DNA of 64,000 nt from assembly GCA_903900265.1 (NCBI GenBank), contig CAIUMM010000015.1, forward strand, positions 93,438-157,437, written 5' to 3'. This document shows, in pieces, positions 951 through 3,034 of this stretch (position 1 is its first letter; every line of letters starts with the position of its first letter). The DNA is from an uncultured Pseudomonadota bacterium. GTDB lineage: Bacteria; Myxococcota_A; UBA796; SXON01. The notes below the pieces were generated by a model. It was not told the DNA's origin. It was given only the letters and a program-made list of their open reading frames with translations, and did not search any database. Made by a program: the position numbers and the translations under genes.

Positions 951-1742
951 ATGTCCCTTCCCCTCGAACTCTCGTCTGGCGAGTTTCAGCTAGTCTACAA
1001 TATGTTATCGCTGGCTATCGCCGCGATGTTTGCCTCGTTCGCCTTCTTTGTGATGGTGCAGCAGCAGCTCACCGCCAAGTACCGTCCCGCGATGATCCTG
1101 TCGTCGCTCGTGGTCGGCATCGCCGGGTACCACTACTGGCGCATCTTCAACAGCTGGGAGGGTGCCTACGCGCTGAATGAAGCCGGCCGTTACGTAGCGA
1201 CCGGTGAAGCCTTCAACGACGCGTATCGGTACGTAGATTGGCTCCTGACCGTGCCGCTGTTGGTGGCCGAGCTCGTGGCCGTGTTGGCGTTGCCAAAGGA
1301 GCGTCGCGGCTCCATGATGGCGCGGTTGGTGGTCGCCAGCGCGCTCATGATCGGTCTCGGGTACCCCGGTGAAATCTCGGGCGATGCCACGACCCGCGTG
1401 GTCTGGGCGGTCTTGAGCACGATCCCCTTCGTCTACATCCTTTTCGTGCTCTACACCCAGCTCGGACAGGCGGCCAACATCAAGGATTCCGAGGTGAAGG
1501 TGCTCCTCCGCAACACGCAGTTGTTGCTTCTCGGGACTTGGGGCTTCTACCCCATCGCGTACGCGATGCCCCTGCTCGGTATCGGTGGCTCGGGGGCTAC
1601 CGTCGCACTGCAGGTCGGTTACTCGATCGCCGACATCGCTGCAAAGTGCGGCTACGGCACCATGATCTACCACATTGCACGTGCGAAGATGGCGGCTGAG
1701 GGCGTTGACGAGGCTGAAGAGCCCCGGCTCGCTTTGAAGTGA
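951..1742 (+). CDS. microbial rhodopsin, xanthorhodopsin/Gloeobacter-rhodopsin-like light-driven proton pump (DTE motif)
   Basis: 263 aa with seven hydrophobic segments. Helix-C string RYVDWLLTVPLLVAEL gives D96/T100/E107. Helix-G string YSIADIAAK gives D228 and Schiff-base K232 (nt 1644-1646). H61 lies in IAGYHYWRIFNSW. The blocks FNDAYRYVDWLLTVPLL, GYPGEIS, STIPFVYIL and GFYPIAY match my recollection of Gloeobacter rhodopsin/xanthorhodopsin. Confidence 0.95.
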   Translation: MSLPLELSSGEFQLVYNMLSLAIAAMFASFAFFVMVQQQLTAKYRPAMILSSLVVGIAGYHYWRIFNSWEGAYALNEAGRYVATGEAFNDAYRYVDWLLTVPLLVAELVAVLALPKERRGSMMARLVVASALMIGLGYPGEISGDATTRVVWAVLSTIPFVYILFVLYTQLGQAANIKDSEVKVLLRNTQLLLLGTWGFYPIAYAMPLLGIGGSGATVALQVGYSIADIAAKCGYGTMIYHIARAKMAAEGVDEAEEPRLALK

Positions 1743-1945
1743 TCGCATCCGACGATTCCGCGGTGGGTCACTACCGGACGAGCGCTGGGGCGCTGGGTTT
1801 CGTCGGCGCGCTCGGGGTTGTGGTCGGGGCGGTGTCCACGGCCACCGGCACCGAGCTGCACTTCATCGATGGGCAGGCGATGGTCGGGTTCTCCCTGCTT
1901 TATGTCGTAATCGCGATGTACATGGCGTTTGCCAAGACAGGATGA
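1739..1945 (+). CDS. small two-TM membrane protein translationally coupled to the rhodopsin gene
   Basis: The GTG start overlaps the rhodopsin TGA stop (GTGA at 1739-1742). 68 aa with two hydrophobic helices (GALGFVGALGVVVGAVSTA and MVGFSLLYVVIAMYMAF). Third-codon positions are mostly G/C, as in real genes here. Confidence 0.5.
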   Translation: MIASDDSAVGHYRTSAGALGFVGALGVVVGAVSTATGTELHFIDGQAMVGFSLLYVVIAMYMAFAKTG

Positions 1946-1952
1946 TCTCGCT

Positions 1953-1987
1953 CCGGTCTGCTGGGAAATCGACCCCCAGCGGACCGG
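1953..1987. terminator. candidate bidirectional terminator hairpin between convergent genes
   Basis: CCGGTCTGCTGGG (1953-1965), a 9-nt loop, then CCCAGCGGACCGG (1975-1987). This is a 13-bp stem with one mismatch, followed by TTCC. It lies between the rhodopsin operon (+) and the SDR gene (-). Confidence 0.45.
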
Positions 1988-2050: not shown

Positions 2051-2773
2051 CTAGCCCTTGGTGCGCACCGTGGACCGGCCACCGTCGACTGGCAGGACCT
2101 GCCCGGTGATCCACCCCGCGTCCGGCCCGAGCAGGAAGGCAGCTGCCGCCGCCATGTCCGCCGCCTGGCCGAGCCGCGGGATCGGGTGGAGAGCGGCGAT
2201 GGACTTGGCTATGGCTTCGTTGCTCGTGAGCCCGGCCGCGAGCGGCGTGTCCGTGAGGCTGGGTGCGATGCAGTTCACCCGGATTGACGGAGCCAGATCG
2301 GCCGCGAGGCTCCGGGTGAGCGCCTCCACCGCGCCCTTCGCCGAGGCGATGACCACGTGGTTGGTGAACCCCTGCCCCGCCGCAATCGACGAGAACAACA
2401 CCACGGACCCGCCGCCGGCTCTGAGCGCGTCGTGGGCCTCGCGCACGGCCACCACCGCACCGACCACGTTTAGTCGGTAGGCGTCGACCATAGTGGCGGA
2501 GTCGACGCGACGGACCGGCTTCAACACGATGGACCCCACACAGTAGGCGAGTCCGGAGACAGTATCGCCGGCGGCGGCGATCGCGGCGGCGAGTTGGGTT
2601 TCGTCCACCACATCGGCGGCGGCCCAGGTGGCGCCGAGCTCGGCGGCAAGAGCAGCGAGGCGGCCTTCGTCGCGCGCGACGAGGTGCACGGCGCGGCCTT
2701 CGGCGACGAGCCGCCGCGCGAGCGCGGCCCCGATGCCACCGGTGCCACCAACGATCACGACGGGTCCAGACAT
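2051..2773 (-). CDS. short-chain dehydrogenase/reductase (SDR) family oxidoreductase
   Basis: 240 aa with the N-terminal Rossmann motif VVIVGGTGGIGAALARRL and a length and profile typical of classical SDRs (SSIAA...ASKGAVEAL). Confidence 0.9.
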   Translation of the reverse strand: MSGPVVIVGGTGGIGAALARRLVAEGRAVHLVARDEGRLAALAAELGATWAAADVVDETQLAAAIAAAGDTVSGLAYCVGSIVLKPVRRVDSATMVDAYRLNVVGAVVAVREAHDALRAGGGSVVLFSSIAAGQGFTNHVVIASAKGAVEALTRSLAADLAPSIRVNCIAPSLTDTPLAAGLTSNEAIAKSIAALHPIPRLGQAADMAAAAAFLLGPDAGWITGQVLPVDGGRSTVRTKG

Positions 2774-3034
2774 GTGCGCTCCATCCGAAGCGGTTCGCTT
2801 TAGCGCCGAGCACGGCGCCGGGCGAGCGTGTGCCGCGCAGTGCGAGAAGCAGCATACGGAGCGGGTGGTTCACGCGACGCCCATCCCGTGGTGGGGTGGG
2901 GGATGAGCGAGGCGGGCGCCCGGGTGCGCTCTGCGGGCGGACGGACAAGGGAAGTGCTGGGGCGCTGCAACGATGGGATGCTCTTCGCACCCGGAATGGC
3001 GAGGAGTCGAGCCGCGTCCGTAAGCCGCCGCGCG

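Follow-up and report, generated by a model that had tools for sequence, protein, structure and literature searches.

The window analysed here is a stretch of 64,000 nucleotides (positions 93438-157437 of contig C15) from the genome G000, in which a rhodopsin gene, a small gene overlapping its stop codon, a stem-loop and a convergent SDR gene follow one another as listed below.

951-1742, plus strand: rhodopsin, a xanthorhodopsin-family proton pump of 263 aa (PF01036, E value 8e-37)
1739-1742, plus strand: GTGA stop/start overlap, in which the GTG of the small gene shares 4 nt with the TGA of the rhodopsin gene (read from the sequence)
1739-1945, plus strand: small gene for a 68-aa two-TM protein of an unnamed family (orthologs, dN/dS, profile search)
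1766-1780, plus strand: motif G-H-Y-R-T, aa 10-14, at the predicted cytoplasmic start of TM1 (alignments A1, A2, A3 and A7)
1778-1840, plus strand: TM helix 1, about aa 14-34, rich in Gly and Ala (hydropathy, AlphaFold2, alignment A3)
1862-1870, plus strand: motif F-I-D, aa 42-44, in a short acidic loop, predicted periplasmic (alignments A1 and A3)
1871-1936, plus strand: TM helix 2, about aa 45-66, followed by a short basic tail (hydropathy, AlphaFold2 helix 45-64)
1953-1987, plus strand: stem-loop between the small gene and the convergent SDR gene (fold; recurrent hairpins in orthologous loci)
2051-2773, minus strand: SDR gene, convergent, directly after the stem-loop

The upstream gene has the type-1 fold, the DTE motif, the counterion-pairing His and the Schiff-base Lys by which the xanthorhodopsin (XR) family is recognised, and in an alignment of 99 sequences its key residues are D96/T100/E107, H61, D228 and K232. 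The nearest solved structures are those of XR (3ddl), Kin4B8 (7ytb) and GR (6nwd), with E values of 1e-82 to 1e-85. The Gly that these three carry after the helix-E Trp, and that opens a fenestration for a carotenoid antenna, is Ala153 (1407-1409) in the window rhodopsin. Upstream of the rhodopsin gene, positions 781-845 are AT-rich and contain the repeated TTATAAAT, within otherwise GC-rich DNA; the promoter or operator of the two-gene unit probably lies here, and a sigma-70 consensus scan called no promoter there.

In DNA with 69% GC, ORFs of 68-codon size are present in every frame, so the small ORF taken alone is not beyond chance, and it is regarded as real because of its conservation across loci and not because of the ORF itself. 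A sequence-only reading made ahead of this analysis had described a GTG start overlapping the rhodopsin TGA, two hydrophobic helices, GC-rich third codon positions and a strong hairpin behind the gene. All four were found again: the overlap is read as GTGA at 1739-1742, the helices appear both in the hydropathy profile and as a hairpin in the AlphaFold2 model, the GC content by codon position (0.65/0.47/0.81) follows the same pattern as that of the rhodopsin gene (0.60/0.42/0.82), and the hairpin is present at 1953-1987. Furthermore, a word-indexed protein search returned six homologs of 68 aa with 74–78% identity, all unnamed. When 80 rhodopsin loci from species-representative genomes were scanned for ORFs beginning near the rhodopsin stop, an ORF of 63–98 aa was found 3' of the rhodopsin gene in every Myxococcota-type locus with downstream DNA. 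Conservation of the ORF 3' of orthologous rhodopsins had been set beforehand as the test of the proposal, together with the pattern of synonymous and nonsynonymous changes; the ORF is present at every ortholog examined, and purifying selection is seen in the annotated frame only. In seven close orthologs the dN/dS of this frame is 0.12–0.54 (Nei-Gojobori, bootstrap values below 1), while the other two frames give 0.9–7.6. The value for the rhodopsin gene is about 0.11–0.14, and the small ORF is therefore under coding selection that is weaker than that on the rhodopsin. An internal GTG at codon 9 was considered as the start and rejected, since it is not conserved in close orthologs, while the overlapping start is. 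Judged by comparison of sequences, the ORF of 68 codons is a genuine and conserved gene, whose product would be a two-helix membrane protein.

The arrangement of the two genes is likewise conserved. A 4-nt overlap (GTGA, ATGA or TTGA) occurs in 14 of the 33 distinct loci and a 1-nt overlap in another two, and altogether 31 of the 33 show an overlap or a gap of at most 18 nt. No clear Shine-Dalgarno sequence precedes the GTG of the small gene. Strong hairpins lie just past the stop of the small gene in many orthologous loci (e.g. L001, L007, L018, L082, L087, L092, L093 and L139), and their recurrence supports a two-gene unit. The proposal that the two genes would be co-transcribed and terminated together is thus in keeping with the spacing and with the recurrent hairpins. 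Short JGI contigs with the family member P0006 (samples 3300013077, 3300012745, 3300012732 and 3300016693) may be assembled transcripts, in which case they would already place both genes on a single RNA. In the window, the stem-loop has a 13-bp stem with one G-U pair, a 9-nt loop and no U tail, and the 76-nt stretch containing it folds with −37 kcal/mol (z = −2.25). A consensus terminator scan did not call it because the U tail is absent, and it is probably a terminator without a U tail. In the closest relatives, two extra tiny genes (72 aa and 37 aa, with a 4-nt overlap) lie about 240 nt past the small gene (L139:1259-1587, L140, L141, L144:424-707 and L082 at about 1860-2075). The window lacks these two genes, and there the hairpin is followed directly by the convergent SDR gene.

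The small protein has two hydrophobic stretches at about aa 14–34 and 42–66, and AlphaFold2 with the family alignment A3 gives a helical hairpin of residues 5–36 and 45–64 (mean pLDDT 86.7). Family-wide, the sequence is characterized by G-H-Y-x-T-x-G before helix 1, a near-invariant Gly in helix 1, the F-I-D loop and G-x-W-M before the basic tail. The helix-1 residue G23 is conserved in at least 90% of the members and is the sole column at that level. Type-1 rhodopsins end in the cytoplasm, and in relatives the domain is fused to the C-terminus of a seven-helix protein (see below), so that the hairpin would have both termini inside (N-in/C-in) and its loop in the periplasm. This topology, predicted from the charge distribution and the fusion architecture, agrees with the acidic loop and the basic tail. 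Neither Pfam, NCBIfam nor the source annotation has a family name for the protein. With Pfam, no family was matched by more than two of 35 members and none significantly; neither a HAMP nor an MCP domain nor any other Pfam domain was found in these 35, and their tails range from a few up to about 30 residues. No family came from the ESM Atlas either, its scores of at most 0.86 being leads only, and Foldseek of the hairpin model against PDB returned only generic helical hairpins (best E value 1.3).

The distribution of the small gene follows that of one group of rhodopsins. A quick tree of 99 XR-family rhodopsins places the partner-bearing sequences in one supported clade of 35 rows (SH-aLRT 97), 33 of which have the partner; the other two are a contig that ends at the rhodopsin and a long-branch SAR324 sequence without partner. 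The small gene is the first gene 3' of the rhodopsin gene in all 33 distinct clade loci, which belong to Myxococcota MAGs and pair it with an XR-family rhodopsin. Of 401 evenly sampled Myxococcota genomes, 12 gave strong profile matches (E value at most 3e-7), each immediately 3' of a rhodopsin sharing at least 61% identity with that of the window. Weaker matches had E values of 2.6e-4 or worse, and those listed sit inside reading frames of about 100 to 1,478 aa. Rhodopsin (PF01036) is encoded in 24 of the 401 genomes; the other 12 of these, whose rhodopsins are at most 55% identical to that of the window, have no such ORF, and no strong match was found in any of the 377 sampled Myxococcota genomes without rhodopsin. 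The linkage is maintained down to a rhodopsin identity of 62%, at which synonymous sites are saturated. Moreover, the pairwise distances of the small protein and of the rhodopsin correlate (Mantel r = 0.57, reached by 0 of 2000 permutations), with a mean p-distance of 0.73 for the small protein, which is fast-evolving, against 0.33 for the rhodopsin.

D96, T100, E107, H61, D228 and K232 are present in each of the 33 partner rhodopsins, whose fenestration residue is Gly in 23 cases and Ala in 10, the window included. The only rhodopsin positions specific to the partner-bearing clade are M123 and M247, and no obvious docking surface emerges from these. One lower-GC genus (G281, G356) has, besides the usual downstream copy, a second version of the small gene, a paralog about 230 nt ahead of the rhodopsin gene (L084:256-477 and L086 at about 2801-3019 on the minus strand; also upstream of rhodopsin in L012 and L014). 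This paralog keeps the motifs E-H-Y-H-S-S-G and G-x-W and has lost F-I-D.

An HMM search of 1.84 billion representative proteins gave 204 clusters (50% identity) at E values of at most 1e-3, 95 of them at 1e-10 or below. Nearly all are 55–100 aa long, and the sampled ones show the family motifs; a metagenome scan with a narrow alignment found two loci only. In three sequences (P0117, P0158 and P0086) the two-helix domain forms the C-terminus of a seven-helix protein, and the G-H-Y-R-T motif is carried as GQHR. P0117 has 336 aa, P0158 has 343 aa and is 64% identical to P0117, and P0086 is a 182-aa fragment. The P0117 gene is identical in two independent assemblies (L145:4001-5011 and L146:1012-2022), and AhpC/TSA and MsrPQ-like genes are among the neighbours of the fusion genes. 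The N-terminal 7TM part of P0117 is not recognised by Pfam, and hhalign aligns residues 5–245 of the fusion with residues 5–252 of the rhodopsins over 238 columns (probability 98.3%, E value 2e-14). None of the counterion Asp, the donor Glu, the second Asp and the Schiff-base Lys is retained in this profile alignment, and the fused N-terminal part is therefore a degenerate, retinal-free rhodopsin descendant. Since the Schiff-base Lys is absent, the association of the 7TM domain with the hairpin needs no retinal, and since the pump residues are absent, the function of the fused proteins may differ. As an argument from gene architecture, the fusion is Rosetta-stone evidence for the predicted hairpin working with the rhodopsin fold. 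The AlphaFold2 model of P0117 has a pLDDT of 67 and a pTM of 0.44 with low confidence in the 7TM part, and the packing site of the hairpin is therefore not visible in it; Foldseek of this model gave rhodopsins only among weak, non-significant matches.

The position of the small gene directly behind one whole XR clade, together with its fusion to a rhodopsin-like domain in relatives, makes the small protein a probable, so far undescribed partner of a pump that is commonly taken to work alone. The sequence-only reading knew of no described small partner for pumps of this kind. For XR/GR-type pumps this stands, as our literature search found none; it does not extend to all rhodopsin pumps, since Bap is known for haloarchaeal bacteriorhodopsin (PMC1885257, PMC2253796). 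Bap (OE3107F/VNG1468H), the nearest published analogue, is a predicted two-pass membrane protein of 50–70 aa encoded directly downstream of bop. It has been reported only alongside bacteriorhodopsin and is regulated together with bop, and no function has been assigned to it (PMC1885257, PMC2253796, PMC3184054). The present family resembles it in small size (68 aa in the window, 63–98 aa among the members), in its two hydrophobic helices and in its location immediately behind a pump rhodopsin gene, read in the same direction, and nowhere else (33 loci; 12 of 12 carrier genomes). The two differ in that Bap is archaeal and goes with bacteriorhodopsin, whereas the present family occurs with XR-family rhodopsins in Myxococcota MAGs and so lies outside the haloarchaeal range. 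In addition, the distance between the genes in H. salinarum is said to allow independent transcription, while the genes overlap here, and no fusion to a rhodopsin fold is reported in the cited papers, in contrast to the fusions described above. A search of a plasmid collection for the haloarchaeal bop-bap locus gave no haloarchaeal match. We file the family as a bacterial, XR-linked variant of the Bap kind, provisionally outside the Bap family itself.

Two more families of small two-TM proteins are encoded in this slot, behind other XR-like rhodopsins. Type B (alignment A4; L022:3756-3983, L034:3885-4115, L046:1271-1510, L049:1635-1910 and L067:3094-3324; also L152-L158) comprises 42 clusters of 70–91 aa proteins whose genes lie 3' of the rhodopsin gene. 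They come from Bacteroidota, Ignavibacteriota and one Myxococcota MAG, and in one case the two genes overlap by ATGA. Type B is often followed by genes for lycopene cyclase and blh. Type B genes also occur with no adjacent rhodopsin gene, either directly 5' of crtY-blh (L155) or coupled to a FA_desaturase-family gene in a carotenoid cluster (L156/L157). Among 300 sampled Bacteroidota genomes, none beyond the seed genome has type B. Type C is a small two-TM ORF directly 3' of rhodopsin in two Deinococcales MAGs (L060:2808-3092 and L069:3801-4007), with the shared motif AFDYF-GFGG. Both types are like the window family (type A) in length (68–98 aa), in the two TM helices and in the position just 3' of an XR-family rhodopsin. 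Homology of type A to types B and C was considered and rejected, the hhalign probability being below 1%. Together with Bap, there are apparently three or four independent small hairpin proteins in the same operon position, and the presence of three or four unrelated two-TM families in one slot points to a common need.

What the partner does is addressed by weighing several readings. We give about an even chance to the reading that it would serve the pump as an accessory subunit of two helices, in roughly stoichiometric amount, or as an assembly factor, a role already suggested from the sequence alone and with which the strict linkage and the natural fusions accord. According to this reading, the small protein would be a two-pass inner-membrane protein made from the same mRNA as the rhodopsin, ribosomes that finish the rhodopsin probably re-initiating at the overlapping GTGA, and its helical hairpin would pack laterally on the seven-helix bundle to give a 7+2 helix unit, in which it would stabilise, assemble or tune the pump and would not make or deliver the chromophore. 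We infer in this way translation by coupling, the topology in the membrane, physical binding and an effect on the pump. Besides the linkage and the fusions, the confident AlphaFold2 hairpin and the conserved small residues in TM1 support the subunit; the fast evolution of the small protein, the single column conserved at the 90% level, the small number (two) of clade-specific rhodopsin positions and the lack of a Shine-Dalgarno sequence before the GTG count against it. A working analogy is provided by KdpF, CydX, AcrZ and sarcolipin/phospholamban, tiny hydrophobic proteins with one TM helix that are co-transcribed with, or act on, a larger membrane machine and stabilise or tune it. They differ from the present protein in having a single TM helix and in belonging to unrelated families, no relation in sequence or fold being found (Foldseek best E value 1.3), and we know of no such small subunit for a microbial rhodopsin. 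To our knowledge, the XR-family pumps of other clades function with no gene of this kind and the solved XR and GR structures contain no partner protein, which also speaks against a subunit.

Strict linkage would equally be expected from a transient chaperone or from a chromophore-related role. A transient biogenesis factor, in which the hairpin would aid insertion, folding or oligomerisation of the opsin and be absent from the mature pump, shares the linkage data with the accessory subunit, and the solved XR-family structures without a partner, known to us as general knowledge, speak for it. The reasoning made for Bap can be transferred as well: no two-pass protein was seen in purple membrane (PMC1885257), and Sharma et al. 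proposed for haloarchaeal Bap a role in membrane insertion, folding or oligomerisation. The tight translational coupling and the permanent fusion to a 7TM domain suit a stable partner better, and we consider the transient factor rather unlikely.

The small protein might instead serve the chromophore, either by passing retinal from Blh to the opsin or by holding or positioning a carotenoid antenna outside the pump. The gene neighbourhood gives some ground for this, since in eight loci (L002, L005, L006, L009, L011, L016, L017 and L089) the small gene lies, by Pfam, between the rhodopsin gene and crtY (lycopene cyclase) and/or blh, all in one direction, and since the unrelated type B has the same slot and is also found with crtY-blh or carotenoid genes away from rhodopsin. 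In XR clades that have no partner, blh is often directly after the rhodopsin gene. Where blh is upstream or divergent (L010, L004 and L088), however, the small gene is still 3' of the rhodopsin gene, and in terms of gene order the small gene follows rhodopsin, not blh. Moreover, it is kept in the window genome G000, which is 93.6% complete and in which neither a PF15461 blh nor a PF03055 RPE65-type oxygenase was found, and in the family relative G362, where PF15461, the only family searched there, was not found; in two related genomes, G202 and G072, the same PF15461 search does detect blh, immediately behind the small gene. The fusion to a rhodopsin homolog without the retinal-binding lysine and the presence of the gene with either fenestration residue (Gly in 23 loci, Ala in 10) also stand against a chromophore factor. 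Taken together, the linkage, operon and fusion facts favour binding to the 7TM bundle over serving the chromophore, and we hold the latter to be unlikely, slightly more so than the transient factor.

A two-helix hairpin encoded beside a type-1 rhodopsin also recalls TM1-TM2 of the Htr transducers, as in SRII-HtrII. The Htr hairpin attaches to the side of a type-1 rhodopsin; its gene is adjacent to the opsin gene and precedes it, and Htr proteins have large cytoplasmic HAMP and methyl-accepting domains. Phospholamban and sarcolipin, for their part, act on SERCA. The small protein could accordingly be imagined as a minimal relay or regulator, either an Htr-like hairpin without the signalling domain or a gate on the pump in the manner of phospholamban/sarcolipin. 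In favour of this are the general likeness to SRII-HtrII, the conserved His-Tyr motif at the predicted cytoplasmic face and the comparison of Bap with Htr (PMC1885257). Unlike Htr, however, the small protein has no cytoplasmic domain, HAMP and methyl-accepting domains being absent by Pfam from the 35 members and the C-terminal tails being short, and its partner is a pump that keeps the intact D/T/E motif and H61 in 33 of 33 cases and not a sensory rhodopsin lacking the proton donor. A relay or regulator is therefore very doubtful.

Finally, that the gene is a real and conserved hitch-hiker, with a function unrelated to rhodopsin and merely travelling in the same mobile cassette, is highly improbable: rhodopsin cassettes do move horizontally and linkage alone is no proof of shared function, but in the contexts examined the small domain is never away from a rhodopsin or a rhodopsin-derived domain, the linkage persists down to 62% rhodopsin identity with saturated synonymous sites, and the domain is fused to a rhodopsin fold.

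The accessory subunit would bear on how such pumps are treated. In ecology, optogenetics and bioengineering, microbial rhodopsin pumps are taken as self-sufficient single-protein photosystems, and in ecology rhodopsin gene counts are read as phototrophy. If the partner is true, an opsin expressed alone in a heterologous host may not reproduce the native pump. The question of Bap has been open since 2007, and the present family offers a bacterial system to address it, with some 200 sequence clusters, naturally occurring fusions and simple operons of two genes that could be expressed in E. coli. More tentatively, and with less than an even chance, the XR pumps of this clade might be obligate two-component machines, in which a stoichiometric 2-TM subunit in a 7+2 complex changes pump behaviour, Bap and types B and C being independent inventions of the same solution. 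If so, the 2-TM subunit would alter, for example, the oligomeric state, the stability, the spectral or antenna properties or the regulation of the pump, and small partners would be common to microbial rhodopsin pumps in general and have been overlooked.
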